Positions 45,583 through 63,377 of a DNA stretch of 64,000 nucleotides are shown piece after piece. The stretch is taken from positions 1,550,001 through 1,614,000 of the forward strand of contig OY253670.1 of NCBI GenBank assembly GCA_958009085.1. The letters are read 5' to 3'. The notes beneath the pieces were generated by a model that was not told where the DNA came from, did no database searches, and saw only the letters and a program-made list of their open reading frames with translations. The translations under genes were made by a program, and so were the position numbers. This DNA comes from Protoeuglena noctilucae. Taxonomy: Eukaryota. The first letter of the stretch is position 1. Each line of letters starts with the position of its first letter.

Positions 45583-45630
45583 TGCCGCTGCCGCTGCCCA
45601 AACGACAAATGTACCCCTAACATGGGGGGT

Positions 45631-45858
45631 TCAAGGGGGTGGCCGAAGGCCGATGGGCTCCGCCCCCGCCCCCTGCCCCTTCCGTCTCGCCAAAGCGCGA
45701 GCCCGAAACTCAGGGTCTTCCGCGTACTTGCGTCTCATGTACTCCAATTTTTTCTCCCGATTCTTTTGATACGCTTCTCTTTTCTGCTGGAGTATACGTT
45801 CCTTGTTAGCTTCATAGTAAATCTTGAAGCGGTTAGCCGTAGCCGCAGAGTCTTCCAT
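45631..45858 (-). CDS. Small basic protein (YYEANKERIL motif), paralog of 63174-63377
   Basis: 75-aa Lys/Arg-rich helical ORF with an AT-rich leader. Confidence 0.7.
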   Translation of the reverse strand: MEDSAATANRFKIYYEANKERILQQKREAYQKNREKKLEYMRRKYAEDPEFRARALARRKGQGAGAEPIGLRPPP

Positions 45859-45878
45859 ATTATAGTTGACGAAAATCT

Positions 45879-46808
45879 TTACGCTTCCACCACGAGGTCT
45901 CTCTTGACAGTCTTGCGCCGTTTCGTTGTCGTTTTAATGAGCTCGTAGCTGCTGGGCAACACTCTAACAATCTCAAAGATGGCCTTGGATACGTGTTCCG
46001 CGCGCGACTTTTTGAGTCTCGGGTTTGTATCTATCACACGCACTCGGTCTCCCACATTAAAGAGCGCCCTGGCATTTGTCTCTCGTTTGAAATTCTGGTT
46101 CAGTTTGTTTTGGAGGTATGTGATTTGATGGTAGTCCGTTGGACTTATCTCGTGGTCATCGACAAGCTTCATGATGTCATCCGGTTTCATTCCGGTTTGT
46201 TTCGAAACAGTGTCGTTATGCGCATTGGCCACTGCTGTCAATTTTTGCCAATACGTCATGTCATCTGGTAGTCTCGTGATACCTTCCCGTAATGTTCGAA
46301 TCATTCGTTCGGCTGTCGGAGCATGCTCTACGAACTGTTGCTGAACCCCTTGCTCCAGGAGCCATGTCACGGTGTCCTTGGAATCTCCCACAGTCCACGC
46401 GGAGTCGCGGTCACACACGATGGTCATCGGCTTAGGGCGTTGACGAGGCAACATGCTTAACAGTCCCTTTTTTACAGAATCTTTTGTTTTATTTTTCAGG
46501 GGATACAGGTAGACATATTTAGAAAACACGTCGACCAAAACGAGGATATACTTCACGTCTTTCGTCTGATTCGGTTTCTCAATGTGCATGATGTCAAGCA
46601 TGGCTACTGCCCACGGGGACGTAGTCATGAAGTGGCCCCCTTTCGGTTTCTCGTCTCGGGGCTTCATGACCATCCTGCGAACGTTCTTTTGCCCGAGAAG
46701 GAATTCCTTTTCTTGCGACTTGCTGTATCCTTTCGAACGAACTTTGGCATACAACTTATCGATAGATGTGTATCCCTGCTTAAAAAATGTATTGAACAGC
46801 TCCTCCAT
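45879..46808 (-). CDS. Retroviral-like (rve, DDE) integrase
   Basis: AMLDIMH..KYILVLVDVFSKYVYLYPLKNKT, IVCDRDS, TAERMIRTLRE and HNDTVSKQTGMKP. The C-terminus is SH3-like (FNVGDRVRV). Confidence 0.93.
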   Translation of the reverse strand: MEELFNTFFKQGYTSIDKLYAKVRSKGYSKSQEKEFLLGQKNVRRMVMKPRDEKPKGGHFMTTSPWAVAMLDIMHIEKPNQTKDVKYILVLVDVFSKYVYLYPLKNKTKDSVKKGLLSMLPRQRPKPMTIVCDRDSAWTVGDSKDTVTWLLEQGVQQQFVEHAPTAERMIRTLREGITRLPDDMTYWQKLTAVANAHNDTVSKQTGMKPDDIMKLVDDHEISPTDYHQITYLQNKLNQNFKRETNARALFNVGDRVRVIDTNPRLKKSRAEHVSKAIFEIVRVLPSSYELIKTTTKRRKTVKRDLVVEA

Positions 46809-46861
46809 ATATGAGCTTTAAAAAACCTCAACCAAAAATGAGGCCGAAGGCCTCTCGGGGT

Positions 46862-49800
46862 TTAAGGGGACTTCGTCCCCTTCCTGTTGCAAGCCAGGCA
46901 GGCAATCCCACAGTTTTCTTTCGTGTGACCGAGGTCGTCATCTGTGCGGTCCAGAGTCCATGTCCCCTCCTGATAAAAGTCAGCACCGCAATGCCTGCAC
47001 CGGAATTTGTCAGCTTTCAAGAGAGCCCAGATATCCTCGGACGTGATTGTGGTCTCTTGGTCACGCGTCCTGTCCTGTCGCGTGTACCCCACAACCTTGT
47101 CCCGAATGTATGCTTTCAAGTTCAAGAGAACAGAGCTGATACCCTGAACGAGATAGACTTTATCGAAGTCCCTCGCTCGTGTGATGGCCATGTACAATTC
47201 TTCACATCCGACGAACGTGGTGCTCACACCATGGACATATAAGTTTCCGCTCGTACGAGACCCCTGACAGCTGTGAATGGTTACCATATTGGACGACTCA
47301 AAGTTCTTGTGGAACTGGTCTACTTTAATTTTCTGAATCACACCGTCTTGTCCTTGCAGTTCCACATGGGACCCGTCATTAGACACCATCAAGTACTCTG
47401 CATTCCTAACGAATTTCCCAGAAGACCTCCCAGAACTCGGTCGATAGGTCCAAGTGTCTGGAGCAGCTATGTTCGTCCCCAACGATTGAATGCACTTGAA
47501 CGGACATAGATGTAGTCCATCACGTGCGAGTGCCTCGTCCTCGGACAACAAGCGCTTCTGTGTCATAAACCACTGAATGCACGCTCTCTTGTCCTTGCGC
47601 TCTACAAGCATCTCTCGTAGCTCTTTGAGTAATGGCTTCTGTGATTCCGGTAGGGTTTTATTTTCATGCAGGTATACCCTATTTTTGAAAACGCTCTGCA
47701 TGAGCATCCCGACTGCATCTCGGGAATATCGGGTGTCCTGGACCGGCTTCAGCTGGTCGATATCGCCGGTCATGATTAGGGTGTAGTCCCGGTTCACCGC
47801 CTCCGTGGCCATTTCTCTTAATGCCGAGGTACAGAACAGAAACGCTTCCTCGAGGATAACCATATTTGCGTCAGGAGGTACGTTGCGAGTAGCTTTGCGG
47901 TTGATGACCGGGAGCTCCCACCACTTGTGCGAGGTCGTGAAGTGGACGTCTATAGAATCGTCTTCGAAATATCGCTGACAGTCCAGCTTGTTCTTGTTGT
48001 TGGGGCAAACAACCACGATGCGCTTCTCTTGACAGTACTTCTTGACGTAATCGACCCAGAGCCGTGTCTTTCCGCTGCCGGCGTAGTGCGCTTGGATGCT
48101 CAGCCTATTATGTGATTTCAGTATTTCGTGGATTTGTCCCGTCATAAGTTCCGTGTCGTACTCTTGTTCCTTGGTGAACTCATGGGTGATCCATTTGTTC
48201 TTTTCCTTGAATTCTGGAAGATTCGGAGGACTTAGGTCCATAGGATTCGCTTTGATTTTTCCTCGCTCTGGCAGCTTGTATGAGCCCAGTTTTCCGTCAT
48301 ACTTGATGTTTGGACGTTCACGGAAATACACAGCATCTGTCTTGATGGCCACTGGCTTGTATCTCAGATTTTTGTGCATGAACGTAGCGACATTTTCAGC
48401 GGCAAGCTCCTGAAGGACTGCCCAAACGCTGTGCTTCCATCCGTTGAGGCAAACCTTACGGTCCTCGTCATACACGATATTCAGGTCAGGGTCTCCTGAC
48501 AATTTGAGTCTTGGGTTATCCTCGATTACCTTGTATGCGCTCATGGGGTCTTTGAACAAAACACCTCGCTGCGCCCTTGTCCTCGACCTTCCAGCCATAC
48601 CAATAGCCATGTTGACGATTTTTTTCACGTCTTTTAATTTCAGGGTCGTATCCTGGAGTGCATCTTTGTATAACCAGTCGATGACTGCGGCGACTCCCTG
48701 AATGCGCGCTGTATACGCCGTCTTGAGTTCTCCGACGATTCTGATGGGGGGCCGTAGGCCGGTTGGACGTTCGTCCTCCCTGTCGAATAATTTAGCCATC
48801 CTCTTGAGTACACTGCCGAGACATAGCGATAGTTCCTTTCGGTAATACACTTGCTCCGAGAACCAGAATAACTGAGTCTTGTCCAACTTGACGACGTACC
48901 AAGCAAGGTCATCCGCATCTTCTACGCGCATGTCGACGCTATAGAAGTGGTCGCTCGAGCATGGTACAGGAATTTCCATGCCTTCCATTGACTTTAGAAT
49001 ATATGTGTAGTGCTTGCTAGCGTCGCATTCCCAGAAATCACCGTCGATTCCATCACGGAGGGATTCTGAACTACCCTCCCCCATACATCGTTTGATACCG
49101 AACTTTCGGAGGCGGTCAAACACGTCGAATACGTCTTGGTTAACCTCGCATCTTGTCGTGGAACAGAGTAGTCGTTTGAGGAGTTTGTCCTGGGCGTTTT
49201 TGTAGTCGATTTCATGCTCAAGACTGTACCTCGGTTCGGTAATCTCGTCGCACTCGACCATGGACTTCACTACTATCTTTTTGTTGTCTACGTGATGGAA
49301 CATGAATTGGTTGACTTGTCCATTCTGTAGTATAAGGGTAAACGGGACGGCAAATGGAACCACGTTTTTAAGCGCTCCGATTACGTCGTGGGTATAATAG
49401 GTACCAGGTTCGATGCTGTTCAGTTCCTGGAGACTTTCAACATATTTCCAGGGAATCACTTCCTTAATTTTCGTGGGAGCCCACTCGATTTTCTCAGGTG
49501 CTTTCGCTGCAGGGAAGTCGATTTCTGGGGCGAGGAAGTCTTCGATAGTCTTCGCGTGCACATTCTCTGTAGCCCGCTTCGTGTGCCACGCGGGACATAT
49601 GTGGCCGTCATGGACGATAAAAGTCAAGCGTCTAATTTCCTTGTTCTCCCGCTCTGCTTTGAGTTTGAGTACAACGCGACCAAAGATATTGAAAACCACC
49701 ACATTAAATCTCTTGGCCAGCAATTGACACCCCTCGAGCAATCTAACAGGCCCATCCGGGAAATTCTCACTCACCCACTTAAGGTGGCAGGTGATGTTTT

Positions 49801-50383
49801 GTTTTGCCTTTTTTGAACCAGAATTCTCAATCGCACGTAGAATCTGATTTTGAACCGAAGACTTGAAACAGCTTCCTTCCTTGAGGTCGAATACGTTGTC
49901 AGAGTCCTTGAATCCCAGGGGGTTCACGTGGTTAATAAATACGCTCTTGTCCCTGGACACCGCCTGCTCGAACCATAGCTTATAGTCGCGTTCATGTGGG
50001 TTCACCTTATAGACAGAAACAACGTCGATGAATACCATTCCTCCGCTGGTTGCAATGCTGCTTAAATTCTCAAAGAGGTCTGGATTTGATTTCTCGATGA
50101 GGTTTCTAAACCTCTTAGCTGATTCAGTTTTCGCATTGTTGAACTCGAATTTCTCTATTTTGGGAGCAGGGTCTTTAACAAACATCCGGTAAGGCGTCTC
50201 GTTCATTTGAATGAACCAGCCTTTGAAATGTCCAAATCCACGCCGAATCGTGTTATTTTGCAAGTGCTGTTCAAAGTACTCGAGAACGTTATGGCCTCGC
50301 TTGTTCTTCGTGTCGATGTGATGACGCATCTTCTTGACAGTAGCTCGTAGCTCATCGTAAGTTCTTACCTCTTTTCCGGCCAC
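46862..50383 (-). CDS. Replication polyprotein: divergent family-B DNA polymerase fused to SF1 helicase and C-terminal HNH/Zn domain
   Basis: PolB-like motifs A (CDASKHY), B (KKIVNMAIGMAG) and C (IKTDAVY). Helicase motifs AGSGKT, VILEEAF, GDIDQLKPV, TIHSCQGS and YMAITRAR. C-terminus CRHC..TLDRTDDDLGHTKENCGIACLACN. Confidence 0.85.
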   Translation of the reverse strand: MAGKEVRTYDELRATVKKMRHHIDTKNKRGHNVLEYFEQHLQNNTIRRGFGHFKGWFIQMNETPYRMFVKDPAPKIEKFEFNNAKTESAKRFRNLIEKSNPDLFENLSSIATSGGMVFIDVVSVYKVNPHERDYKLWFEQAVSRDKSVFINHVNPLGFKDSDNVFDLKEGSCFKSSVQNQILRAIENSGSKKAKQNITCHLKWVSENFPDGPVRLLEGCQLLAKRFNVVVFNIFGRVVLKLKAERENKEIRRLTFIVHDGHICPAWHTKRATENVHAKTIEDFLAPEIDFPAAKAPEKIEWAPTKIKEVIPWKYVESLQELNSIEPGTYYTHDVIGALKNVVPFAVPFTLILQNGQVNQFMFHHVDNKKIVVKSMVECDEITEPRYSLEHEIDYKNAQDKLLKRLLCSTTRCEVNQDVFDVFDRLRKFGIKRCMGEGSSESLRDGIDGDFWECDASKHYTYILKSMEGMEIPVPCSSDHFYSVDMRVEDADDLAWYVVKLDKTQLFWFSEQVYYRKELSLCLGSVLKRMAKLFDREDERPTGLRPPIRIVGELKTAYTARIQGVAAVIDWLYKDALQDTTLKLKDVKKIVNMAIGMAGRSRTRAQRGVLFKDPMSAYKVIEDNPRLKLSGDPDLNIVYDEDRKVCLNGWKHSVWAVLQELAAENVATFMHKNLRYKPVAIKTDAVYFRERPNIKYDGKLGSYKLPERGKIKANPMDLSPPNLPEFKEKNKWITHEFTKEQEYDTELMTGQIHEILKSHNRLSIQAHYAGSGKTRLWVDYVKKYCQEKRIVVVCPNNKNKLDCQRYFEDDSIDVHFTTSHKWWELPVINRKATRNVPPDANMVILEEAFLFCTSALREMATEAVNRDYTLIMTGDIDQLKPVQDTRYSRDAVGMLMQSVFKNRVYLHENKTLPESQKPLLKELREMLVERKDKRACIQWFMTQKRLLSEDEALARDGLHLCPFKCIQSLGTNIAAPDTWTYRPSSGRSSGKFVRNAEYLMVSNDGSHVELQGQDGVIQKIKVDQFHKNFESSNMVTIHSCQGSRTSGNLYVHGVSTTFVGCEELYMAITRARDFDKVYLVQGISSVLLNLKAYIRDKVVGYTRQDRTRDQETTITSEDIWALLKADKFRCRHCGADFYQEGTWTLDRTDDDLGHTKENCGIACLACNRKGTKSP

Positions 50384-50567
50384 TTTCTCGAGGACATCGA
50401 AGTCAGTCTCGTCGTGCTCGGATATCCAAATATTTTATGCCGTATCGTAAATGGTTCGTTTGCGCTGCTTTTCGTTCTTGCGTTGTCTACGTGCGTGTTT
50501 TTGTTGAGCAATTCTCTCAGCTCGCGCGACTTGCTGGCGGATGGTACGGGCTTTGGGCATACCATGT

Positions 50568-50593
50568 TGGAGAAAAATCTTTACGGCGTTTTT
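50568..50593 (-). promoter_or_regulatory. Second start-proximal motif AAAAACRCYGTAAAGMTTTT (putative viral promoter)
   Basis: It recurs before ATGs at 62409 and 62912, and the core recurs before 45858. Confidence 0.6.
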
Positions 50594-50648
50594 GGCCGCG
50601 CCTGGAACCGATGGGGCCTTCGCCCCGTATTTTTTCCAAAGTTTTCGT

Positions 50649-50960
50649 ATGGAGCTGAAGATAACCAAAGCGACCGCAAAAGGAAAGAAGTATCGAGCTG
50701 AATTCCTGAGAGCTGGAGACCATCGGCCTATGGCCACCGTCAACTTTGGGGCAGAAAATTATCAGGACTATACCCAACACCATGACACTAAGCGTCGCGA
50801 GGCGTATCGCGCGAGACATAAAAATGACCGAATTGATGACCCCATGACTCCAGGAGCTTTGTCGTGGTACATACTTTGGGGTGATTCGACGAGCATGGAA
50901 AAGAATGCCAAAGCCTTTGCCAAGAAATTTAATTTAAAGCTAATGCCTCTTGGGTTTTGA
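50649..50960 (+). CDS. Tlr6F-like conserved PLV/virophage protein
   Basis: KKYRA..VNFGAENYQDYTQHHDTKRREAYRARH..TPGALSWYILWG pattern. Confidence 0.8.
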   Translation: MELKITKATAKGKKYRAEFLRAGDHRPMATVNFGAENYQDYTQHHDTKRREAYRARHKNDRIDDPMTPGALSWYILWGDSTSMEKNAKAFAKKFNLKLMPLGF

Positions 50961-51131
50961 CTCCTTAGCAAGAACGGTGTTTACATAAAACTGTGCCTTC
51001 CGTTTCATGATGTCCCCGTATGTCGAGTTTTTCGCCAGTACGGCCTTCGCAAACTTCTTGAGGTCCGCTTCGCCATCCTTCTTTTTAAACCCGTATTTTT
51101 TCGCAGCAGCAGTAAACGTGCCTTCCTTCAT
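50940..51131 (-). CDS. Small basic hypothetical viral protein
   Basis: MKEGTFTAAAKK..LKKFAKAVL..KRKAQFYVN. It is preceded by the TTTTCAAAAGTTATAC-ATG motif shared with other viral genes. Confidence 0.65.
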   Translation of the reverse strand: MKEGTFTAAAKKYGFKKKDGEADLKKFAKAVLAKNSTYGDIMKRKAQFYVNTVLAKESKPKRH

Positions 51132-51220
51132 GTATAACTTTTGAAAACGAATGTCGCCGTAGGCGCCTGCAGGGGTTAAAGGGGGCAGCGGCGGAGCCGC
51201 GACGCACGTAGTGCTGCCCC

Positions 51221-54200
51221 CTAATTGATGAAGTCTGTGCTCATGAGAACGCACCCGATGTGGATGGTGTCTATCTGATACCCAGAATTGCTATTCACAA
51301 TGCTAATATAAGGGGGATTGCCTGACCCGTCGGGACTGATAAGCTTCACATCCTGTGGCCAACTAATGTTGCCCGATGTGAATATCTGATACACCCACTT
51401 AGCGATAACGCTTGGCCCGCTGTTGGGGAAACTGAGCGATGGACTTGAGCTATATTGTAGGTACGTGAGTAGACTGATATACAGGTAATCATTGAGTTGA
51501 TTTCTGACATAAACAGTATTGTTATCTGGGGAAATCTTCACGATTCCTTCACACATATAAATATTACCCACGGCGTCTTGACCAGAGCCATACGCGTATA
51601 TCTTCCATATGCCCGCTGACAAGTTGCTCAAGTCGTTGACAGGGAAGCTGACATAATTGCCGTTCACCGGCACATCCAGTCTGTAATACTTATTCTTCAG
51701 CAGTCCTTGGAGAATGTTGAGGTACTTCACGTTAAGCTGGGTACACCTGAATGTCCCCTCACAAGCAGCTGCGAGTCCTACAGACGAGGTATTAAAAACG
51801 CTCAGTTTCGAAGTAAAATTCCCAGCTGAGTCTTTGACACCGAGGTTTACCTGTGCCGGTCCATACGTACTCGAACAGTCAATATTAAGCTGCCCTCCTA
51901 CTGTCTGGTCAATCCCATACGAGTCTCCAGCAGCATATGTCTTGACTAACATGGCTGGGTTATTTGCAGTGTACGTGATTGGCGTGGCTGTTGTGAAGTT
52001 TCCGTTAACCGTCAAGGCTTGGGTAGTCGTACTCGAGTTGCATGTGACCGTGCTGTCAAAGTTGACACTTCCGTTAAATATTAGAGACCCAGACAGCGTA
52101 GCATTAGAATTGACATTTAGGAACCCGCCGTTAGACAACGAAGTGGACAAGGCATTAATTTGCGCTTGAACGTCTGATGTAAGTCCTTGACAATAAACGA
52201 TATAGCTTGGCAAATTGCTTATGTCCGTCCAGGGGAGCGTTCCCGACAAACTCCCGGACACTGTCAGTCCACCTGTAATCGTACAGCCTCCCGCATTTAC
52301 CCCTAAGATTTCCGTGCCATTGTTTTGGAAACTCGCTATCTGTGCCCCACCGTTCGTATTATTCGCCGTGAAAACCCTGGCTGTAGAACTTGCCGTGACA
52401 CCCGTGGCGGCGTCCGAGCGCATGAACTGGCTCGCGTTGAGGCCCTGTAGCGTACTCGCGTCGCCGACGGATGTGACCGTTTGGGTCGTGGTTGTATTGT
52501 ACACGATGTTATTGACGAGGTCAACGGTACTGAAGTCAGGGGTCCAAGCGTCATTGACATAGTAGTACTGAACCACATTGAGCCCTGTTGTCGGAGTGGG
52601 GATGGTTCGGACATTGTTCCCCGAATTGTTCTGCTCGGTGATTTCGTATACAAGGTTCGGCTGGAGAATCAAAGTCTTCTGGAGATAATTTCCCGTACTT
52701 GGATTCGGTAGCGGCAGCGTGGCCTGCATGGCCTGGTTATTGTACCCCCATGTGACCAAATACGGTTGAGTCGTGTTCGTTGTCCAAGCATCTGGGTCTG
52801 TCGTTAATCCTACGGAGTAATTCCCGTTTCCGTCCGAAATGAGTACACTCGACTGGTCAGTGGTCAGAAAACCGCTGAAGTATAGGTACCCGTTTTTAGC
52901 ACGCATGCTGTAGTCTGAGATAGTTAAGTGGCCAGTGTTGACGCTGAACGGAATCATTGTATATTGCCACTTTCCCGTGGAAGTGTTCAAGATAAATAAA
53001 GGGTTTTCTGTTCTTGTAGTTCCGAGTGTAGGATTCGTCACGAGGGACGTTGTCCCGTCCATATTGTGCATGGCACTGCCCGTCACAGCTGTACCGGTAG
53101 AGTAAATATCGAGATACATCAGACTGTTTTTGGAATCGTACCACATGCGCCTATTGGCTGCGCCATAAAACGTCGTTTGGAGACCGTAAGCATTGAACGC
53201 AGACACGAACTTAAGCACGGTTCCAGTAGGCGTTATATTTAAGATGTATCCAGAATACGTGTAATTATTCGTAGCTGTGACGCCATTGACAGTAAGGCTT
53301 GAGTTCGTGCTTTGAAAACATACCCATAGATTCGTCCCATCGCTTTCGAGTTGAGGGAAATCGGTCCCGCCTACATTCACCTGGACTAAAGTCCGGACGA
53401 AGTTGCCAGCCGCGTCGTACATTAGAACCACGTTGTCATTCCCATTGAGTGTGATAGAGTTCCCAGAGCTTGCGTTCGTCGAAAGGTTATTAATCGTCAA
53501 TGTCACCGGTGAAGTACTAAGAGCCACCCACATGCCGATGTATAAATTATTCGAACTGTCCACCGCATAGCCTCCGAGGTACAGATTTTGACTGGTAGAA
53601 GTCAAGGCTATGGGATTGGCCATAACTTTAGTCCCACCAGTCTCATTGACTGCTATAATCGCCGTGTTGTATCCACCTCCAGCCGGCAGATACAGCTGGT
53701 TTGGGGAGGAGGAATTTCCTTGACTGGAACATATGGTGGTAATTCCCACCAGTGCGTTGCTACCCCATAACATTTGTGCCGATTTGTACCAGTATTGAGA
53801 ACTCGTACCTCCCGTAGTGTATACAGTATTATATGAAAGTAAAGCGCCAGTTGTAGGGTCATGGACGGTATACATGGTGAAATCTAAGTACGTTGTATAT
53901 TGGTTCGAAGCCACCAATGTAGTCCCGTTATAGATATTAACACCAGCGTTTGCCTGAATGTAGAAGAAGGCCATGATGTTGCCGCTCGGCATAACCACGA
54001 GCCCGTCGAACTCGATAGCAGTAGTAGTCGGGGATTGAACAGGCGCACAAGCCCATCGGAATTGTCCTGTAGCTGTGTAGCTGACAATGTAAGCCGTTCC
54101 ATACGTGTTATTGATGTTTGACAGCCGGAAGCTCGTCTGTGTTCCATCGAGATTCGTGATATACGTGTTAGGCGTGTTCTTGTTGTTGAAGTTCATATTC

Positions 54201-54595: not shown

Positions 54596-54682
54596 ACATG
54601 AGCTTAGAAAACACTTCATGAAAGAGCCACCCGGAGGGGCGTCCCCCTCGTCGCAAGCTCTTCCATGAATTTTTAAAGCTGT

Positions 54683-55093: not shown

Positions 55094-55143
55094 GGGGCAG
55101 CGGCCCGTCGCGCCTGCGGCGCTTTTTTTTTGGAAGCTATTGT

Positions 55144-55608
55144 ATGATTAGCCTCAAGAATCCCGACGCCGCCGAGGGGCACAACCAAGACGTAGAACCA
55201 CCGAGCAGCGGCGGAGCCGCGACGCACGTAGTGCTGCCCACAAAGGACGATACTGCGGCCGCAGGGGGGTCCAAGGGGGCCCCTTACCATAGACTTGCTA
55301 ACTTGCAGAAAGCAAGAGAGGCAGTCGCGCTCAGGAAGCAGGCGAAGCAGGAGGAGCAGTCTCGTCTTCAGTCCCTTAAGGAGCGTGAAAAAACACTCAA
55401 GGACCTTGAATATCAAGTGAAAGAGCAAGAACTTGCTACCCGCGAAAAGGAATTGCTCGCGAAACTGAATACTCTCAACGCTTATGATTCCCACGTAGTT
55501 CAGAGAGCCGACCCTTTGATTCACGATAGACGCGTGAATGAAGTGAAACGCGAGATTGAGACCGCTCGGAAGACTAATAACGTACGGGGGCTAATTTCCT
55601 ATTTCTAA
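55144..55608 (+). CDS. Coiled-coil hypothetical viral protein
   Basis: LANLQKAREAVALRKQAKQEEQ.. heptad-like pattern. The N-terminus includes hairpin-derived sequence. Confidence 0.7.
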   Translation: MISLKNPDAAEGHNQDVEPPSSGGAATHVVLPTKDDTAAAGGSKGAPYHRLANLQKAREAVALRKQAKQEEQSRLQSLKEREKTLKDLEYQVKEQELATREKELLAKLNTLNAYDSHVVQRADPLIHDRRVNEVKREIETARKTNNVRGLISYF

Positions 55609-56523: not shown

Positions 56524-56632
56524 AACCTTTTTACAAAAAAGGTTGACCAAAAATGGGGGGACTGCGTCCCCATCGGGCTATGCCCTACACCCCCGCGGCG
56601 CTATGTTTTGTTAACTTTTTCAAAAGTTATAT

Positions 56633-56851
56633 ATGATACTCGAGGACCTCGTGGACGCCATCGTTAACAAGTACAGCAACTTAGATCACCTCATTGCAAC
56701 CGCTCTTGTACGCCAATGGGCCCGAGACGCTAATGTAGAGCTTGTTTCAAAGTTCAAAGTGCCGGAAGTTCAGGGTGATGACGAAGTTAGTGTTAGGGAG
56801 CAACAGAGTTCCGTCACTATCAGTGAGGTAGATACCGATGCAGTTGAGTGA
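56633..56851 (+). CDS. Small hypothetical viral protein
   Basis: 72-aa ORF directly after the TAACTTTTTCAAAAGTTA motif. It overlaps the 3' end of the penton gene on the opposite strand. Confidence 0.55.
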   Translation: MILEDLVDAIVNKYSNLDHLIATALVRQWARDANVELVSKFKVPEVQGDDEVSVREQQSSVTISEVDTDAVE

Positions 56852-57454
56852 ATTCGTTTCTTCATCGACAATCAGATGTGCGTCATCTTGCCTTCCATTG
56901 AAAACTATACCCTGACTATTTTTATCAGCCGAGATTGGTATCTCGGTTAACACGTCCCCTCTATCAACCCCTCCCATAGCGATAGAGGAATAACTTCTCC
57001 TAACGAAATTTGCATGAACCAGAATACTGGTCGTCCAGTTCAATAAAGGTGCCTTCTGTGCCTCTATAATAGTGCCCGCGGGTATCGTCAATTGTGTCGA
57101 GACCCCCAGCAACGGACTTGCAGATATGACTACACTCGAAAGCAGTGACGTATTTCTGAAAGACAGTCGATTACTTGCCGTGTTGTATTCGCAAAACAAA
57201 TAGGATAATGTGTTATTAGATATCCATGTCGCAAGGTCTTGACACGTAGCCTGGGTCATGTCAGGCACCGCATAAGTGACACCTTGAACTATGATGCTCT
57301 GAGGAAGTACATTTTTGCTGAAATCAATCTCGTTCATCGCGAAGGCCGCGCACCAACCTATCAAAGTCTTGGACTTGGTGAATTTCGGAACACTCCAAGT
57401 GTAATACCCTCCCGTGACAGTCGCGTCTTCCGAGCGCAGTCTGAGTCGCCACAT
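56747..57454 (-). CDS. Minor capsid protein (penton, single jelly roll)
   Basis: L.LRSED start, YNTASNRLSF, SILVHANFV, VLTEIPIS and IGIYLTDSDGTLL..FVITLNF, a pattern typical of PLV pentons. Located next to the ATPase. Confidence 0.78.
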   Translation of the reverse strand: MWRLRLRSEDATVTGGYYTWSVPKFTKSKTLIGWCAAFAMNEIDFSKNVLPQSIIVQGVTYAVPDMTQATCQDLATWISNNTLSYLFCEYNTASNRLSFRNTSLLSSVVISASPLLGVSTQLTIPAGTIIEAQKAPLLNWTTSILVHANFVRRSYSSIAMGGVDRGDVLTEIPISADKNSQGIVFNGRQDDAHLIVDEETNSLNCIGIYLTDSDGTLLLPNTNFVITLNFRHFEL

Positions 57455-57470
57455 ACAAATCTTTAGAAAG

Positions 57471-57501
57471 TTTTGTTAACTTTTTCAAAAGTTATATATA
57501 T
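57471..57501 (+). promoter_or_regulatory. Palindromic AT-rich start-proximal motif TAACTTTTTCAAAAGTTA (putative viral promoter)
   Basis: The same motif precedes ATGs at 56633, 57502 and 61085, with variants before 51131 and 56523. Confidence 0.65.
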
Positions 57502-59208
57502 ATGCCTCCCCAAGAAATACGCGTAAGTGCACAAAGCAACCTACAACCGTTTGACAGAGAAGACCTCGTGGAGCTATGGAATGATTTTGAAAAATCAAAC
57601 CCTGCGCTCATGAAGGCATTAAAAAATGCTTATCCAGGCAATGATAAATTTTGGACGAAGGGCGAGTGGCCAAGGGATAAGATGTACGCCCTTGTAGACA
57701 TTTTCAAGAGCATCGATTTAACCATAGGTCCAGACACAGACGCAAATTTCAACGTGTTGAAGAATCGGATTTATGACCTGCGGACATCAGCGTATTGTAA
57801 AAAAAATTCCAAAAAAATAGCTACAGAAAACAAACAGGTAACTTATACACGTCCTTTCAAAGGTGGTAATAGGTTTGTCGGTTACTGTATGCCGAAGGCT
57901 ACTGAAGGATTAGACGATGCAAGACAACAATTTGACGATTTTAGAAGACAACTTATTAACGAAGCCGTCGCAACCCCATTAGATATTGGGACTGCATCCG
58001 AGACTCAGATTGACCAAACACAAGCACAAGGGTCCACGTCGTATGCCGAAGGCGCTGGTAGCGCCGCCGGCGCTGGTACCGGTAGCGCCGAAGGTGCTGG
58101 GGGTGCCGGCGAAGTGGACTTAACAGACGACGACCGAAACGATATAGCTGCTTTCAACGTCAAGCTCAAGCAGTCAAATCCGGCGCTTTTCGATGAATTC
58201 GACGCCGACCGTAAAAGCCGAACGCGAGAAGACGACCCCTATCCTTGGATTCGGCTGATAAAAACTCTGCCCCCCAATGACCCCCTTTTAAAACCAGCTA
58301 CAACCATCTTGAATCGGCTGATGGGGTTGACCGTATCTGCACAAAATTCAAACACGATTACATCCACCGTTGAGATGATGTATAAGCGTCCATTCAGTCA
58401 GACGAGTCATCCAGTCGTTTACTTTGGGAAAACGAATGATATCTTTGATAAAAAGATGAACGATTTTAAGGTTCAGTTAGACAAAGAACAACATTACCCG
58501 CCTCAATCCAGAGCAGACCAATCGCCTGATTTGAAAGAGGGAGACACCCAGCCCAAGAAGGAAGACATCGACGCTTATAACGCGTTCATTCAACGGCTCG
58601 GAAACATCGACAGTGTCGTTTTGGCTCAGTTCACGTATGACATAAATAACAATATCGCATACGTAGCGCCTTGGCTCAAGTTGTCCAGGACTTTCAAGAA
58701 GTATCCTCAGTTTAACGATCTACAAGGATTTTTGACCGTACTAATGACACGCATGAAGCAATTGACCGCATCTAAACAGTTCTTCGATGAGGGGGTTAAG
58801 AACCTCATCGGGTACTCGACGACATACCCGATAGCTGGAGGGAATCTATCAGGTTATTACTATTGCAAGGACGGAAACCCAGAACTCATGGATGCAAAGA
58901 TAAGCAATATCACGCTTAATGCGACACTGCAACTCTCTGGAATCTATCAAATAGGGGGCGGAGCCCCCTCAGACCCCCAAATGGGCCCATCAACTTCGGC
59001 CACATACCCCAACCAAGCAGGGGGGACGAACGGGGTTGGACAAACGGGGGGCAGCGGCGCAGCCCAGGGGGGGTTGGGGGGCGCAGCCCCCCTGTATAAC
59101 ATATCCGGACCAGACCCCATGGCTATGACCATCCCGCTACTCGGACGCCCCTTGAGGTGCACCCGTGGGCAAAATGCTTATATGTGCTATAAATATGATG
59201 GGTCTTGA
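57502..59208 (+). CDS. Hypothetical viral protein with three diverged internal repeats
   Basis: 568 aa with three ~120-aa units separated by low-complexity linkers. Confidence 0.8.
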   Translation: MPPQEIRVSAQSNLQPFDREDLVELWNDFEKSNPALMKALKNAYPGNDKFWTKGEWPRDKMYALVDIFKSIDLTIGPDTDANFNVLKNRIYDLRTSAYCKKNSKKIATENKQVTYTRPFKGGNRFVGYCMPKATEGLDDARQQFDDFRRQLINEAVATPLDIGTASETQIDQTQAQGSTSYAEGAGSAAGAGTGSAEGAGGAGEVDLTDDDRNDIAAFNVKLKQSNPALFDEFDADRKSRTREDDPYPWIRLIKTLPPNDPLLKPATTILNRLMGLTVSAQNSNTITSTVEMMYKRPFSQTSHPVVYFGKTNDIFDKKMNDFKVQLDKEQHYPPQSRADQSPDLKEGDTQPKKEDIDAYNAFIQRLGNIDSVVLAQFTYDINNNIAYVAPWLKLSRTFKKYPQFNDLQGFLTVLMTRMKQLTASKQFFDEGVKNLIGYSTTYPIAGGNLSGYYYCKDGNPELMDAKISNITLNATLQLSGIYQIGGGAPSDPQMGPSTSATYPNQAGGTNGVGQTGGSGAAQGGLGGAAPLYNISGPDPMAMTIPLLGRPLRCTRGQNAYMCYKYDGS

Positions 59209-59752
59209 ACATGAGCTCGTTGAGATGAATCTCGGGTTTCCCGTATCGAAGGAAAAAATAGGCGATTGGCATCTCGTGTACTCTGGCGCGAATCATATCT
59301 TGGAATACCGTCGAAATGATGGTCTCAGTGCTATCATCTTTCGCGGAACAACTGACGCACAGGATGTCGTGGATGACCTAAGTCTTTATGTATCAGGGAA
59401 CGCGTTCAGCAGTCGTCTGAATGAAGCGCTGTCATATGCTTACAAAGTTGCTAAGACGGGACGCCTTGTAATATGCGTCGGGCATAGCCTCGGTGGTCTT
59501 TACGCTTTGAAGGTTCAAGAGATTTTATACCCCAAGTACCCGATTTGGGCGTGGGCTTTTAATCCCTTCGTCCCAGACGCCGTTTCGTTGCGTCTTAATC
59601 GCCGGCAGAAACTTTTCCTGAACATGAACGACCCGGTGTGTCGAATCACGTATCAATCTTGCGCAAACAGACCGGGTCGTGATGAGGCGAAGTGGGTGTT
59701 TTCTTGGGAAAATACGAGTACGTTAAATCACGGCGTGGATCAATGGCTTTAA
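59195..59752 (+). CDS. Class-3 lipase-like alpha/beta hydrolase
   Basis: IIFRGT, CVGHSLGG, AFNP, NDPV and a terminal NH. Confidence 0.88.
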   Translation: MMGLEHELVEMNLGFPVSKEKIGDWHLVYSGANHILEYRRNDGLSAIIFRGTTDAQDVVDDLSLYVSGNAFSSRLNEALSYAYKVAKTGRLVICVGHSLGGLYALKVQEILYPKYPIWAWAFNPFVPDAVSLRLNRRQKLFLNMNDPVCRITYQSCANRPGRDEAKWVFSWENTSTLNHGVDQWL

Positions 59753-59775
59753 AAATTTCTTTTGTTTCCTTAGAT

Positions 59776-60990
59776 ATGATGAAAATGCTTCCCGACCCGC
59801 TTGACTTTAAATGCGCGTCTCTAAACTCCGGGGTCAGCGTCTCTCAGGTGAAGGTGAGGTCCGACACCCAGGGTACTCGCACTGGAGGCAGCCAGGTCAC
59901 GTTCACGCTACCCACGGCAAGTCTTTTCGATCTCAAGTCGATGAAGCTCTGGTTCAATATCACGAACAATGACACAAATCAGTACATTACACCCCGAGTG
60001 GCAGACCATTTTATTCGACAGCTGACCGTTCAAGTGAATGGGTCGACGGTGAGTAACATCGAGTACTACGGGACAATTGCTGGATATCTACGCGACATGG
60101 AAGTATCCGGGTCTGAGATAAGCTCAAATGCTCTAAGTTACGAGCGCGCCATTGACGCAAGCTCAAATGCTCTAAGTTACGAGCGCGCCATTGACGCTTC
60201 ATCTTCTGCCAAAATTCCCGTGGATGGCTTTAAGTTCGGCTTCCTCTCGGGTGATTGGATGAGGTACCTTGACACTACTCTCTTCAAAAACGTGGTTATC
60301 ACTATCACGCTTGCCAACCCGTGGACGATTGCTGGACCAGCAACGCCGGCCGCTTTGAATAACAACAACGTTGTTTACACAGAGTGCTACCTCACTTGTA
60401 ACAACGTAGGCTTTAACGATGATACGTATCGCGCGCTACTTAAGGAAGAGGTCCAGAGCGAGAAAGGTCTCGACGTGTTTTACAAGAACATGCAGGTGTT
60501 TCCGTCAACTCAGTTCACCGGATCTATCGACTGGACTTTCCGCGTAACGTCCGGTTCGCTCGACAAGCTCTATGGACTTGTGAAGTACGTTGACGCCACC
60601 AAAGGTAACTGGCTGGCAACTTCCGGCACGGCTTTGAGTCCATATGCTAATTCGGTCGGTAACGCAGGACTAACGTACTACTATACCGTCGGAGGGGCTC
60701 GGGTCATTATGTACGATGCGGATGACCAGGAAGCCTTCAGCATTCTAAGGAATGCGGTTGACGTCAAGGCAACCAATACATACGCTACATGGTTGTCTAC
60801 TGATTTCTGTATGGCCACAACTCTATGCCTTCCTCACATCAAGTCAGGATACAACAGCTTTAACTCTGCCGTGGATATCATGCTTCACGTACAGGGACAC
60901 GACGCTTATACCAAGATTCTCCTGGCATGCGCAGAGATGACTTCGAATGTGAACCTGAGCGATACGAACGGCGTGACCATCCGGACGTAG
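59776..60990 (+). CDS. Major capsid protein (double jelly roll, PLV type)
   Basis: About 404 aa. The N-terminal pattern QVTFTLPTASLFDLKSMKLWF..FIRQLTVQVNGSTVSNIEYY is typical of PLV MCPs. The size and gene neighbourhood fit. Confidence 0.85.
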   Translation: MMKMLPDPLDFKCASLNSGVSVSQVKVRSDTQGTRTGGSQVTFTLPTASLFDLKSMKLWFNITNNDTNQYITPRVADHFIRQLTVQVNGSTVSNIEYYGTIAGYLRDMEVSGSEISSNALSYERAIDASSNALSYERAIDASSSAKIPVDGFKFGFLSGDWMRYLDTTLFKNVVITITLANPWTIAGPATPAALNNNNVVYTECYLTCNNVGFNDDTYRALLKEEVQSEKGLDVFYKNMQVFPSTQFTGSIDWTFRVTSGSLDKLYGLVKYVDATKGNWLATSGTALSPYANSVGNAGLTYYYTVGGARVIMYDADDQEAFSILRNAVDVKATNTYATWLSTDFCMATTLCLPHIKSGYNSFNSAVDIMLHVQGHDAYTKILLACAEMTSNVNLSDTNGVTIRT

Positions 60991-61084
60991 GGGGTAGGGC
61001 GGAGCCCATAGGCCTTCGGCCACCCCCTTAAACCCCCTTGGGGCCTTCGGCCCCTTAGTTTGTTAACTTTTCTAAAGTTATTAT

Positions 61085-61429
61085 ATGGCAGCATACACCC
61101 AGAAAAAACCATCTTTGTTTTACGAAGGGTATACCCCGTGGAACCAGAACGTCCCGAGATTCTCGGACCTGAAATGTTGGAAACTTCGGGAAAACCGGAC
61201 ATTGATTCCAGAAACAGACATCTCATTAGGGTACATGTATGCTAAGAAAAAGGGCTCGTGGCTTGACGACTATAAGGTTTGCGACGAAGGCCTCCGGCAT
61301 CCAAAACCTCCCCATGATGATGTCCGACCTACTGCACCCAAGTTCATTGTGCAAGCAGGAGACACTGGGACAAGTAAAGGTACGGGGAGTGAAATTTTTG
61401 TCATCAAAGATAACCGACCTAACATGTAA
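61085..61429 (+). CDS. Hypothetical viral protein
   Basis: 114-aa ORF after the TAACTTTTCTAAAGTTA motif and followed by a hairpin. Confidence 0.7.
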   Translation: MAAYTQKKPSLFYEGYTPWNQNVPRFSDLKCWKLRENRTLIPETDISLGYMYAKKKGSWLDDYKVCDEGLRHPKPPHDDVRPTAPKFIVQAGDTGTSKGTGSEIFVIKDNRPNM

Positions 61430-61525
61430 GAGGGGGCGTAGCCCCCTTAAACCCCCAATAGTGGTTTATTTTTGCCAGGCTCAAGACCGTCGCGGCTTCG
61501 CCGCTCTTTTTTCTGAAACACATAT

Positions 61526-62002
61526 ATGGACACAACAGGTATCGACCCGAGCATGGTCGCTTTAGAGTGGGAAGAACGAATTAAGACAGCGCACCCCATC
61601 AATCTACACGCTCTCATAGGATTGGCCATCAAGGAGTATCAAGCTTCTACGGTGGGTGACAAAGGTGCAGTTTTGGCTATCGTTCTTGAGACCATGCTGA
61701 GCGACCCTGATGGCGTTGGGCACCCCTGCTATGAGGACGCTCAGCGTGTCATGGCTCATGTGGGCCATCAACTGGATGCCTTCACGGACCACACTACGGC
61801 AATCAAAAAGCTGGCCAAACACGTGCGTAAGTCTGTTCCTAAAGACCGTTGGCTTCAGACTTTAAGTTTATGCATTAAGAAACTCGTGTCCGCTCCGCTC
61901 GCTAAGTCAACCATCGAAAACATCACCAAAGTTATCGAGACTGACCTGGAGAGCATCGCTCTGAGTGCATTACGACACGCGAGTCATTTCTTTCATTGCT
62001 AA
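61526..62002 (+). CDS. Hypothetical helical viral protein
   Basis: 158-aa ORF in the co-oriented gene run. Confidence 0.7.
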   Translation: MDTTGIDPSMVALEWEERIKTAHPINLHALIGLAIKEYQASTVGDKGAVLAIVLETMLSDPDGVGHPCYEDAQRVMAHVGHQLDAFTDHTTAIKKLAKHVRKSVPKDRWLQTLSLCIKKLVSAPLAKSTIENITKVIETDLESIALSALRHASHFFHC

Positions 62003-62107
62003 ACGAAGCGTAAAAAAGCTGTCTCTGGAACTCCTTAGAGCCATCCCAGCTGTGCTTATATTCACGTTAATGCACATCCATTGAAACTATTTTTATCTAC
62101 CTATGAT

Positions 62108-62368
62108 ATGCAACTCTTGATAGACAAACTTGAGGTAGCGAACATAGGCGTTCAAACCGGTGGCATTGTTGACCTCGATGCACCCGCAGTGAAGGTCGAT
62201 CTTAAGGACCTTCTCGAGTTGTTTGTCATGGAACTTCAGCTCACCGGAGACAATTCACCAGTGACGTTCGATGTGGTCAAGGGTCATCGTTCTTTCAGGT
62301 TTGTGTACAGCCCCGACAAGATTGACATTATTAAGAAGGCGGTCATGACCCTCGATAGACTGGCTTGA
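62108..62368 (+). CDS. Hypothetical viral protein
   Basis: 86-aa ORF with an AT-rich leader. Confidence 0.6.
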   Translation: MQLLIDKLEVANIGVQTGGIVDLDAPAVKVDLKDLLELFVMELQLTGDNSPVTFDVVKGHRSFRFVYSPDKIDIIKKAVMTLDRLA

Positions 62369-62408
62369 TGGAGAAAAACACCGTAAAGCTTTTTTGTTAT
62401 GTATTATT

Positions 62409-62807
62409 ATGATGACCTCCACCTCCGACCCTCAAGCCATCGACGCGCTTCTGAGCTCGACGCCTCTGCCATATGATATCTGTGAGCACATCAGCAACCT
62501 TGCAAGTGATGAATATTATTGTCATCGTCAGCAGAAACTAATCCGACTGGTGAAACCTCCCGAGGATTTCATGAAAATCGTCCATGCGAAGACTGGTGAG
62601 GTACTGACCAGGGTCATTCTCTATGACGAAGAAGACTTCGACGTGGATGAGGCTGTGGATGCTGTAAGGAAATTTTACCCAGGTAAACGGATAATTTCGC
62701 GAGACGATGACTATCTCATATATGGACATGACACTGACATATACACGGGAGACCACGAAGACCACGAAGACCATGGGCCTTGTTGGGTGTGTGATAAGGA
62801 CTATTAA
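62409..62807 (+). CDS. Hypothetical viral protein (weak F-box-like N-terminus)
   Basis: LLSSTPLPYDICEHI. Preceded by the CGTAAAGCTTTT motif. Confidence 0.6.
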   Translation: MMTSTSDPQAIDALLSSTPLPYDICEHISNLASDEYYCHRQQKLIRLVKPPEDFMKIVHAKTGEVLTRVILYDEEDFDVDEAVDAVRKFYPGKRIISRDDDYLIYGHDTDIYTGDHEDHEDHGPCWVCDKDY

Positions 62808-62911
62808 TTACTATTACTTCTGTTAAGCCGCTGCAAGCCGTAGCCCCTTCGGGACATATTTTTCAAAAAGCGTTGAAGAAAAACGCTGTAAAGCTTTTCT
62901 CCATCCTTATC

Positions 62912-63154
62912 ATGGGTAAGACGCGATACGTGATGCTTTATGATGCCAACGATAAAGAGCTCGGTATCTTTATCAACTGGAGTCAGGCGAAGTGGGACAA
63001 AAGTAAAGCTACTTTTGAGCATTGGTTCGGAGGCACGCCCGTGAAAACGTCGGACGTAACCTATCAGTCCTTCGACGACATGATGAGCGACATCCGAAGA
63101 CCAGGTAAGATGCTGCCGTGGCATAACGGTTCGCGTGGCTCAAGACCTTCCTAA
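62912..63154 (+). CDS. Hypothetical viral protein
   Basis: 80-aa ORF preceded by the TGTAAAGCTTTT motif. Confidence 0.6.
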   Translation: MGKTRYVMLYDANDKELGIFINWSQAKWDKSKATFEHWFGGTPVKTSDVTYQSFDDMMSDIRRPGKMLPWHNGSRGSRPS

Positions 63155-63173
63155 CATTTTTATATCCTTTTTT

Positions 63174-63377
63174 ATGAGCGAAGGAGAGCCTAAGACGTCT
63201 TCTTACCTACCGCAGCATAAACGCTATTACCAAGCCAATCGAGAGCGGATTCTCGCGAAAGCGAAGCAACGGTATGCTGAAAACCAGAAGTACCGCGAAG
63301 CCACTATCCAGCGTTCGAAGGAACGGTACAGGGGGCTCCGCCCCCTCAGACCCCCCACCGGTGGCCTGTTGGAATAA
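63174..63377 (+). CDS. Small basic protein (YYQANRERIL motif), paralog of 45631-45858
   Basis: 67-aa Lys/Arg-rich ORF abutting the right TIR. Confidence 0.7.
   Translation: MSEGEPKTSSYLPQHKRYYQANRERILAKAKQRYAENQKYREATIQRSKERYRGLRPLRPPTGGLLE

Follow-up and report, generated by a model that had tools for sequence, protein, structure and literature searches.

The 64,000-nt stretch of Protoeuglena noctilucae contig OY253670.1 analyzed here in full (the window) contains an integrated element at 45279–63690 (18.4 kb, 48% GC), which its sequence and the modeled fold of its capsid protein identify as a polinton-like/virophage-like virus. The element carries a dispersed family of GC-rich hairpins with 3-nt loops and a conserved C-run tail, and these hairpins are enriched, lie mostly at the 3′ ends of genes, have their tails on the strand of the neighboring genes, adjoin promoter-like motifs, differ between sister copies of the element, and recur in other viruses. 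We tentatively interpret them as labile gene-boundary cassettes, which would act as transcript-end or insulator signals. The punctuation of giant-virus and virophage genes by hairpins is already known; what is new is that an endogenous polinton-like element carries a GC-rich, sequence-defined hairpin family whose members have a C-run tail, that this family is shared with a virophage and giant-virus contigs, and that it is polymorphic.

Enrichment and structure of the hairpin family

The initial annotation had described a set of GC-rich hairpins between 45621 and 63356, and every one of them was present, at its reported position or within 1–2 nt of it (45641, 46840, 46864, 48750, 51188, 55208, 56557, 58953, 59076, 60997/61011/61040, 61431, and 63330). 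The element itself, with its inverted terminal repeats, extends beyond the range given there for the hairpins. A palindrome scan of the 17.8-kb core of the element (45583–63385) against 500 dinucleotide-preserving shuffles confirmed that the hairpins are enriched. The data showed 22 stems with a 3-nt loop and the inner 4 bp all G/C, compared with 2.98 ± 1.85 in the shuffles (maximum 10; none of the 500 reached 22), while all-GC stems of at least 5 bp numbered 10 versus 0.34, and all-GC stems with a GNA or TNC loop 16 versus 0.35 (maximum 3). Together with two GGGGAC stems the 22 all-GC stems make up the set of 24 hairpins considered below, 18 of which have GNA or TNC loops (expected 1/8; p = 3.5e-12). 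The p-values obtained with this set are optimistic, because the 24 hairpins fall into about 11 clusters and are not independent. The suggestion that the GNA loops would be found on one strand did not hold, as the loops on the sense strand were mixed, with 7 GNA versus 10 TNC.

The recurring unit consists of a G run paired to a C run, which closes a C-NNN-G loop or encloses nested small hairpins, and it continues with an A/T-rich spacer of about 5 nt and a second C run. This C-run tail, which had also been noted before, occurs eight times in the 18.4-kb element as CCCCT-N2-4-ACCCC; the remaining 45.6 kb of the window has four such sequences, whose spacers are unrelated. The units form a dispersed multicopy family in both orientations, with the subfamilies GGCC-GAA, G5C-GGA, and GCGGC-GGA. 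Exact 26-nt units are repeated within the element, and a 40-nt block at 51185 is copied at 95% into another context (55205–55244). The previously reported inverted repeat of about 50 bp was recovered as a 48-nt block at 45625–45672, which recurs inverted at 60990–61037 with 90% identity.

Single hairpins folded as DNA formed the predicted structure on both strands, with energies of −3.3 to −7.9 kcal/mol and z values of −2.5 to −3.7. The folding model gives both strands the same energy, and so is blind to any extra stability of C-GNA-G loops. Searches with Rfam 15 covariance models found no family over the window hairpins (one unrelated match had E = 0.83), nor over the same motif in 13 viral or 20 bacterial loci. 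Two stretches of the element, at 59017–59092 (plus strand) and 45652–45680 (minus strand), have at least four close G runs on one strand, which gives them predicted G-quadruplex potential and their complements predicted i-motif potential. For the G5/C5/C5 layout of the unit, a triplex, a G-quadruplex or i-motif, and a primase site were also considered as conceivable roles.

Position of the hairpins relative to genes

The hairpins are placed preferentially in non-coding DNA, with 13 of the 24 in the 7.9% of the core that lies outside maximal open reading frames (ORFs) (p = 5e-9). In agreement with the initial annotation, which had put most of them at gene 3′ ends, 16 of the 24 are found between −90 and +180 nt relative to an ORF stop, which is true of 24% of the core as a whole (p = 1.5e-5). 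The strand of the tails follows the direction of the genes: in the plus-gene arm all four tails are on the plus strand (58965, 61024, 61443, and 63342), and in the minus-gene arm all four are on the minus strand (45626, 46857, 51172, and 55266), the last in a stretch with ambiguous gene calls. The center of the spacer is itself the stop codon of the helicase ORF (TAA) and of a 75-aa ORF (TGA), while a TAG or TAA immediately precedes the G run at the ends of the 1132-aa ORF (51221), the capsid ORF (60988), and the 114-aa ORF (61427).

On their other side several hairpin clusters adjoin a 30-nt motif (…AACTTTTTCAAAAGTTATATAT / …AAAGTTATATATG), which was found at 56605–56634, 57470–57499, and 61057–61086 on the plus strand, and at 51128–51147 on the minus strand. 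The motif is partly palindromic and ends at the ATG of four ORFs, a position which suggests that it could be a promoter; it had no exact match in IMG/VR. Hairpin clusters abut it at 51147, 56605, and 61057. A second common box, CATTTTTGGTYRASSTTTTTT, is located before the integrase and ATPase genes, at 46820–46843 and 56535–56558.

In the minus-gene arm, the outermost cluster (45621–45680, minus strand) contains GGGC-GGA-GCCC, GGCC-TTC-GGCC, and ACCCCC-TTGAA-CCCCCC, with the TGA of the 75-aa ORF as the center of the tail. The next one (46836–46886, minus strand) consists of AAGGGGAC-GAA-GTCCCCTT, AAACCCC, and then GAGGCC-TTC-GGCCTC; the TAA of the helicase ORF is within its tail, the promoter-like T-rich box of the integrase gene follows, its RNA fold has z = −3.3, and sister copies of the element have a different hairpin variant here. 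An isolated GGCC-GTA-GGCC at 48750–48760 is located inside the helicase ORF. The composite hairpin at 51150–51224 (minus strand) lies directly after the TAG of the 1132-aa ORF and next to a promoter-like motif, and is built from an outer G5CAGC/GCTGC5 stem around GCGGC-TCC-GCCGC, followed by TTTAACCCC and then by GCGCC-TAC-GGCG. The hairpin GGGG-ACG-CCCC (54628–54646, minus strand) is 27 nt past the stop of an 89-aa ORF, shortly before the 1132-aa ORF begins. The region from 55092 to 55285, where gene calls are ambiguous, contains several hairpins, including GCGCC-TGC-GGCGC with T9 at 55110, the block copy at 55205–55244, and AAGGG-GGC-CCCTT at 55266–55285 with its tail on the minus strand. 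The pair at 56557–56600 (GGGGAC-TGC-GTCCCC, then GGGC-TAT-GCCC, then TACACCCCC) sits between the end of a 235-aa ORF, the start of the ATPase gene, and a promoter-like motif.

In the plus-gene arm, the cluster at 60990–61056 (plus strand), the inverted copy of the block at 45625–45672, lies directly after the TAG of the capsid gene and contains GGGC-GGA-GCCC, GGCC-TTC-GGCC, ACCCCC-TTAAA-CCCCC, and GGGGCC-TTC-GGCCCC. The hairpins at 61431–61504 (plus strand), which start 2 nt past the stop of the 114-aa ORF, are AGGGGGC-GTA-GCCCCCT, TAAACCCCC, and then GCGGC-TTC-GCCGC with a T-rich run. The last hairpin (63330–63356, plus strand; AGGGGGC-TCC-GCCCCCT, CAGACCCCCC) lies within the last codons of a 67-aa ORF, where it encodes …RGLRPLRPP…. 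The region at 58953–59092 (plus strand) consists of AGGGGGC-GGA-GCCCCCT, CAGACCCCC, G-run-rich DNA, and GGGGGGC-GCA-GCCCCCC, and a 568-aa ORF reads it in frame as a Gly/Ala/Pro-rich tail; the 26-nt unit at 58953 has AAAT on both sides. As at other gene ends, a TAG (58952–58954) stands directly before the G run, and because it is out of frame the 568-aa ORF runs on for 85 codons through GC-rich hairpin DNA. The identical 568-aa sequence was found on 16 contigs.

Differences between sister copies

Sister copies of the element on other contigs encode proteins at least 90% identical to those of the window, which differ exactly where the hairpin DNA begins. At the protein level, differences of the kind for which such a comparison had been proposed, apparent indels and swaps, are present at the hairpin-coded ORF ends. 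The small ORF at the left end of the element continues after …RKG with QGAGAEPIGLRPPP, with A, or with RKTP before its stop, its paralogue at the right end continues after …RYR with GLRPLRPPTGGLLE or with RGRKTP, and the helicase ends in …NRKGTKSP or in …NRGRGPLKPPC. At the helicase end the hairpin is retained while its sequence is exchanged between the sister copies. Hairpin units therefore appear to be gained, lost, and exchanged.

A further example of such lability is in an unrelated contig with 59% GC (L233), where a 118-nt GT…AG insertion with the motif splits motif B of a family-B DNA polymerase between KQKATK and VTMNSVYG. The insertion is absent from an 86% identical homologue (P0127), as judged at the protein level. 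A palindromic unit pair in the same contig is read in frame, and the length of this region varies among homologues that are 85–98% identical. The motif-bearing stretches of this contig are located at 6561–6681 and 8001–8097.

The idea of a micro mobile element, raised in the initial annotation, agrees with the polymorphism of the ORF ends and with the insertions in the polymerase gene. The mobility machinery expected of such an element was not seen, since Pfam identified no transposase or HUH endonuclease among the ORFs, in which the element's own rve integrase is the sole recombinase, and the units showed no consistent target-site duplication, direct repeats flanking the unit at 58953 (AAAT) alone. 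A likeness of the complement of the tail to transposon ends was dropped, as the match is too short to be meaningful.

The hairpin and its tail in other genomes

In a first scan of IMG/VR the 3′ arm and tail were used as the query, which gave 106 loci, about the number expected for a random 16-mer. In 65 of 122 matches, at 49 loci, the 5′ arm, which was not part of the query, completed a hairpin with a stem of 4 bp or more, in most cases 8 bp. The tail was then considered separately, by counting the 5-mers that start 2–5 nt after the stem AGGGGGC-NNN-GCCCCCT in at least 113 non-redundant, non-anellovirus loci. Among the matches listed, the commonest 5-mers were ACCCC (18 loci) and TTTTT (16), followed by CCCCA (6), CACCC (3), and TCCCC (3), while GCCCC and AGGGG were not found.

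A parallel is found in a virophage unrelated to the element of the window (15,361 nt, 31% GC), with a Sputnik-type capsid protein identified by Pfam. This genome contains 11 GC hairpins, compared with 0.28 in shuffles, and 8 of the 11 are in the 15% of its DNA that is intergenic. Within about 25 nt after four of its stop codons lies GCGGGG-NNN-CCCCGC with C-N-ACCCC behind it, and five of six hairpin+ACCCC copies point in the direction of the gene. Another unit, in the opposite orientation, contains the window's own CCCCCTTAAACCCCC, and one hairpin is inside the terminal repeat. The two copies of this virophage are uninformative on presence or absence of units, because they are 99.87% identical and align without gaps.

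Other carriers are giant-virus-like contigs with genes for DUF5767, an A22-type resolvase, the capsid protein of nucleocytoplasmic large DNA viruses, Rpb2, or ribonucleotide reductase. The motif was found right after the stops of the Rpb2 and ribonucleotide reductase genes, and in two contigs (L054 and L329) convergent copies of it face each other. In a wider scan, 13 of 80 listed matches with flanks were on giant-virus contigs from 9 metagenome-assembled genomes (MAGs), a count not normalized to their share of the collection. In a cyanomyophage-like group the tail pairs with a downstream G run. Bacterial MAGs from several phyla, many in number, also contain the motif, and its surroundings there are often conserved.

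The anellovirus-like contigs among the matches (L001 and some 49 other loci) are about 3 kb long and have an Arg-rich ORF1 and an ORF2 containing W-x7-H-x3-C-x-C-x5-H; their GC-rich non-coding region is made of two to four tandem 27-nt copies of the hairpin+tail unit. Tandem arrays of the unit were also seen in a bacterial MAG (L377, 401–678; period 85 nt, four copies), in a 139-kb giant-virus MAG contig close to its end (L496, about 6296–6364; period 23 nt, three copies), and in a giant-virus-like contig (L018, around 5001; period about 45 nt).

The gene context of the motif in the wider IMG/VR collection was analyzed in a sample of 58 instances with naive ORFs. At tight adjacency (−45 to +30 nt of a stop) the placement leaned toward co-directional, with 13 versus 5 instances, and the types of spacer were weakly non-random, with 7 convergent, 18 tandem, and 6 divergent.

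Possible functions of the hairpins

The gene-boundary reading that we tentatively favor is suggested by where the hairpins lie and which strand their tails are on, by the stop codons that they overlap, by the promoter-like motifs next to them, and by the independent parallel in the Sputnik-type virophage. According to this reading, a cassette would comprise at least one GC stem of high stability closed by a 3-nt loop, typically laid out as a G5…C5 stem, an A/T-rich spacer of about 5 nt that often includes a stop codon, and a second C run, and it would be located at or just after the stop codon, directly before the promoter-like motif of the next gene. There it would mark transcript 3′ ends by termination or processing and would insulate neighboring transcription units. 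The machinery that reads it may be of the giant-virus type, since the module is also present in giant-virus contigs and in a virophage unrelated to the element. Between sister copies the cassettes would be duplicated, inverted, swapped, and lost, and this evolutionary lability would let them behave like portable regulatory modules.

RNA data were available as assembled contigs from four metatranscriptome runs of a single study, which covered 60014–64000. Some RNA contigs end near hairpins (61050, 61492/61500, and 62833/62848), while others bridge them. The role as transcript-end signals proposed in the initial annotation is thus consistent with position, tail strand, and promoter adjacency, while the RNA contigs run through hairpins and have no poly(A); they neither support nor refute this role, because transcript ends are not visible in contigs and a single study supplied all the runs. 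An intrinsic (rho-independent) terminator, that is, a GC hairpin with a T/U tract, does not describe the family, as a T-rich tail follows only about five of its hairpins (46840, 55110, 56557, 61040, and 61492).

Several observations weigh against a role of the hairpins as gene-boundary signals. Several RNA contigs cross the clusters at 60990–61056 and 61431, and in the covered part of the element no poly(A) loose ends were found on the contigs, which are unable to reveal transcript ends. Terminator-like sites with a U tract are not enriched in the element (23 compared with 17.4 ± 4.6 in shuffles), and whole clusters folded as RNA are strong folds with z values of only −0.4 to −3.3 relative to shuffles. 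On the sense strand GNA loops occur alongside TNC loops, and three units, at 58953, 63330, and 55205–55208, are read in frame inside ORFs. In the wider sample of 58 instances, ORF stops within 200 nt showed no strand preference (24 co-directional versus 26 convergent), nor did instances with one type of stop only (11 versus 13, p = 0.84), some placements were divergent, and 13 instances were inside naive ORFs. A 60-kb giant-virus contig contains a single such hairpin, which is therefore no general terminator there, and no single transcription system explains the presence of the motif in both bacteria and anellovirus-like contigs.

The hairpins could instead be selfish or mutationally generated palindromic micro-elements without a dedicated function, which would spread by insertion, duplication, or inversion and persist only where they are nearly harmless, in intergenic spacers and at the 3′ ends of ORFs. 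This explanation is possible, and we consider it less probable than a gene-boundary role, with which it is not mutually exclusive. It would account for the subfamilies in both orientations, the 48-nt block inverted 15 kb away, the 40-nt block copied at 95%, the units read in frame inside ORFs, the indels of the sister copies exactly at unit boundaries, the polymerase insertion and variable in-frame unit pair of contig L233, and the tandem arrays in several contigs. A slippage model has also been proposed for the hairpin repeats of giant viruses (2026 preprint). On the other hand, no transposase or HUH endonuclease accompanies the units, and no consistent target-site duplication was found, as only the unit at 58953 is flanked by AAAT. 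The tail strand tracks gene direction in the window and in five of six virophage tails, unlike neutral insertions, the hairpins are exactly at stops and promoter edges, and the helicase end keeps a hairpin while its sequence changes; moreover, empty and filled sites are compared here at the protein level only.

A DNA-level role in the replication of a linear genome, akin to the one in single-stranded DNA or strand-displacement replication raised in the initial annotation, seems improbable to us. The hairpins would be extruded in single-stranded intermediates, with the C run as a priming or recognition site, or they would protect displaced strands or make them pause. This role keeps some probability because the arm-specific strand of the tails, which flips between the arms, fits the direction of replication from the ends or the center as well as it fits transcription. 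Clusters are located directly inside both terminal repeats of the element, and a hairpin is within the terminal repeat of the other virophage; both strands fold equally well as DNA, and tandem units fill the GC-rich non-coding region of the anellovirus-like contigs, which represent single-stranded DNA viruses. C(GNA)G loops are extra stable in DNA, which also argues for this role. A site at nearly every gene end is not obviously needed for replication, however, the element has no protein-primed polymerase, and within an arm GNA loops occur on either strand. A further explanation, that GC-rich patches fold as a by-product of composition or chance, has practically no probability left. Shuffled GC-rich clusters do fold almost as well as most of the real ones (z = −0.4 to −1.6), but shuffles of the whole core never reached the observed counts, the loops are biased to GNA or TNC, exact 26-nt units are repeated, and the 5-mer after the hairpin is specific to ACCCC (18 loci among the matches listed, compared with 3 for CACCC, 3 for TCCCC, and none for GCCCC). 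Shuffle counts, loop bias, and ACCCC specificity together refute it. The remaining probability belongs to something other than punctuation, selfish elements, or replication.

Comparison with known hairpin systems

Polyadenylation in Mimiviridae is defined by hairpins, following a "hairpin rule" that is also obeyed by Pithovirus (PMC4402537), and some regulatory signals are known to be common to giant viruses and the virophages that depend on them (PMC4402537, PMC8547959). The hairpins of the window resemble the Mimiviridae signals in being palindromes just downstream from genes, in short intergenic regions of a cytoplasmic-type DNA virus (PMC4402537). On the other hand, the Mimiviridae signals are described there as lacking sequence conservation, in AT-rich genomes (PMC4402537), while those of the window have short GC-rich stems in a few sequence families, 3-nt loops, and a conserved C-run tail. 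With repeated 26–48-nt units and this tail they do not fit a definition by structure only. The element also differs in having no RNase III or poly(A) polymerase gene, and its hairpins are known here from DNA, with polyadenylation suggested by analogy.

The stem–loops called PeSL in T4-like phages likewise adjoin promoters and recur between genes (PMC4122927), and they have been implicated in indels and module exchange between close relatives (PMC4122927). The same adjacency is found in the element, at the three clusters next to the 30-nt motif and before the integrase and ATPase genes, with promoter function suggested by position. In contrast, PeSLs belong to bacterial viruses that use the sigma-70 polymerase of the host, while here the promoters are putative and the exchange is seen at protein ends only. 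Palindrome families with NNN loops that are enriched in intergenic DNA have also been described in Sissivirus and other pimascoviruses (2026 preprint), where the authors propose an ancestral role in polyadenylation and a spread by hairpin-driven slippage (2026 preprint). In the example presented there the unit is A/T-flanked, and the hairpins form huge tandem arrays with spacer-like units in a giant virus (2026 preprint); this is different from the few dispersed GC-rich clusters of the window, each with a C-run tail, in an integrated element of 18 kb.

Among integrated elements, those of Cafeteria burkhardae, the endogenous mavirus-like elements (EMALEs), are similar in their intermediate GC content (47–53%), terminal inverted repeats, rve integrase, and location in a high-GC protist genome (PMC8547959). 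The capsid protein of the window element (415 aa) is unrelated in sequence to the mavirus capsid protein, its gene order differs, and no tyrosine recombinase was found in it. The main text of the EMALE paper does not mention hairpins, palindromes, terminators, or stem–loops (PMC8547959).

In 18 of the 24 hairpins one of the two strands has the sequence C-GNA-G, which likens them to d(GCGNAGC) mini-hairpins, while the strand of the GNA loops is inconsistent, and the related virophage and most other carriers use other loops. Yeast mitochondrial mobile GC clusters, Rickettsia palindromic elements, and introner-like elements are short dispersed palindromes, sometimes in frame, that are present or absent between relatives. 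The window hairpins share with these elements that they are short GC-rich palindromes dispersed in a genome of lower GC content and are sometimes read in frame, and differ from them in a bias of position and strand to genes that is stronger than neutral insertions predict. If the hairpins were micro-elements, which we regard as possible though not the likelier case, then mitochondrial GC clusters, Rickettsia palindromic elements, foldback miniature inverted-repeat transposable elements, and slippage-made repeats would be the systems to compare them with.

The literal motif was found in no paper of the literature searched, which did not extend to supplementary files, and none of the titles and abstracts listed on hairpins of virophages or polinton-like viruses described it. 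A broader reading, which we consider unlikely, is that G5-C-NNN-G-C5 with a spacer and ACCCC(C) would be an undescribed portable micro-module of giant viruses, virophages, polinton-like viruses, and hosts, and would serve as a gene-end signal once it has landed. Its landing sites would be spacers, ORF ends (with …RGLRPL(K/R)PP… peptides), and intron-like insertions in a DNA polymerase gene. If this were true, widespread hairpin signals would come in two tail classes, the U-tract terminator and, as the second, the hairpin with ACCCC; among the matches listed, the latter is as frequent in viral contigs as the classical T tract. This frequency, together with the polymorphism of the sister copies, raises the question whether such units are mobile palindromes, serve a regulatory purpose, or combine the two. 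It has been proposed that a particular giant virus wakes virophage-like elements through cis signals that both have in common, and those documented so far are promoters and AT-rich hairpins only. A GC-rich, sequence-defined gene-end module present in an endogenous polinton-like element, a Sputnik-type virophage, and giant-virus contigs would offer a new way to pair dormant elements with their helpers, and would aid the annotation of transcription units in such elements.

Borders and genes of the element

The GC content of the window is about 62–73% up to about 45.2 kb and drops to 45–53% between about 45.3 and 63.7 kb, while the other 45.6 kb of the window, outside the element, is host DNA with 66% GC. 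The element is bounded by 304-nt terminal inverted repeats (280 nt at 99% and 39 nt at 95%), located at 45279–45582, with GGGC-TAT-GCCC at 45466, and at 63386–63690, with GGGC-ATA-GCCC at 63493. TGTT on both flanks (45274–45279 and 63690–63694) may be a 4-bp target duplication. The insertion breaks a very long, repetitive open frame of the host, which runs from 36702 to 45275 on the minus strand and resumes beyond 63620. One contig from the RNA library links the right flank and 1098 further letters to a copy of 45000–45161, which indicates that the host gene is internally repeated.

Pfam named 4 of 20 ORFs: the rve-family integrase (45879–46808, minus strand; PF00665, E = 1.5e-10), a 1155-aa protein with a superfamily 1 helicase domain (46862–50329, minus strand; AAA_30, E = 4e-9), a DUF5754 protein (E = 4e-16), and a weak AAA_22 match (E = 0.0028, below the cut-off) in a 310-aa ORF (55591–56523, minus strand). 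The position of the latter tentatively suggests a packaging ATPase; for packaging ATPase, maturation protease, and penton genes, this weak match was accompanied by an Atlas search lead at 0.75 only. The 235-aa, 568-aa, and 1132-aa ORFs had no Pfam match.

The major capsid protein gene (59743–60990, plus strand; 415 aa) has a predicted double-jelly-roll fold. The AlphaFold2 model (mean predicted local distance difference test score 80.4) matched in Foldseek the capsid proteins of iridovirus and PBCV-1 (E = 2.5e-18 to 1e-14) and those of mavirus (8e-13) and Sputnik, both at about 1e-12. For the sequence itself a word-based search gave only near-identical copies, and an exhaustive search 123 distant relatives with at most 31% identity; no close relatives of the capsid and ATPase genes were found in IMG/VR or in the metagenome contig collection, and word-based protein searches for them yielded near-identical copies only. 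Distant capsid homologues, once aligned, proved too divergent to guide a scan for loci. The presence of terminal inverted repeats, an rve integrase, a replicative helicase, and the double-jelly-roll capsid fold is the reason for identifying the element as an integrated polinton-like/virophage-like virus.

Some further features of its genes were observed. The capsid gene contains a perfect 39-nt tandem duplication (13 aa) at 60120–60197, and its sister copies are 401 aa long with the duplication and 388 aa without it. The outermost small ORFs, 45631–45858 (minus strand) and 63174–63377 (plus strand), are just inside each terminal repeat and point outward; they are paralogues (38% identity over 52 aa, E = 1e-7), and a hairpin-coded peptide ends both. 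A 192-aa ORF (59174–59752), which reaches from the last part of the 568-aa ORF into the beginning of the capsid gene, contains a GHSLGG motif resembling a nucleophile elbow, with sub-threshold matches to alpha/beta-hydrolase and lipase_3 families (E = 0.03–0.11). Finally, one RNA-library contig with a depth of 90.9 has 17 differences over 354 nt to the integrase gene (46393–46746) and then diverges, and its probable source is a sister element that has diverged and is abundant in this library.

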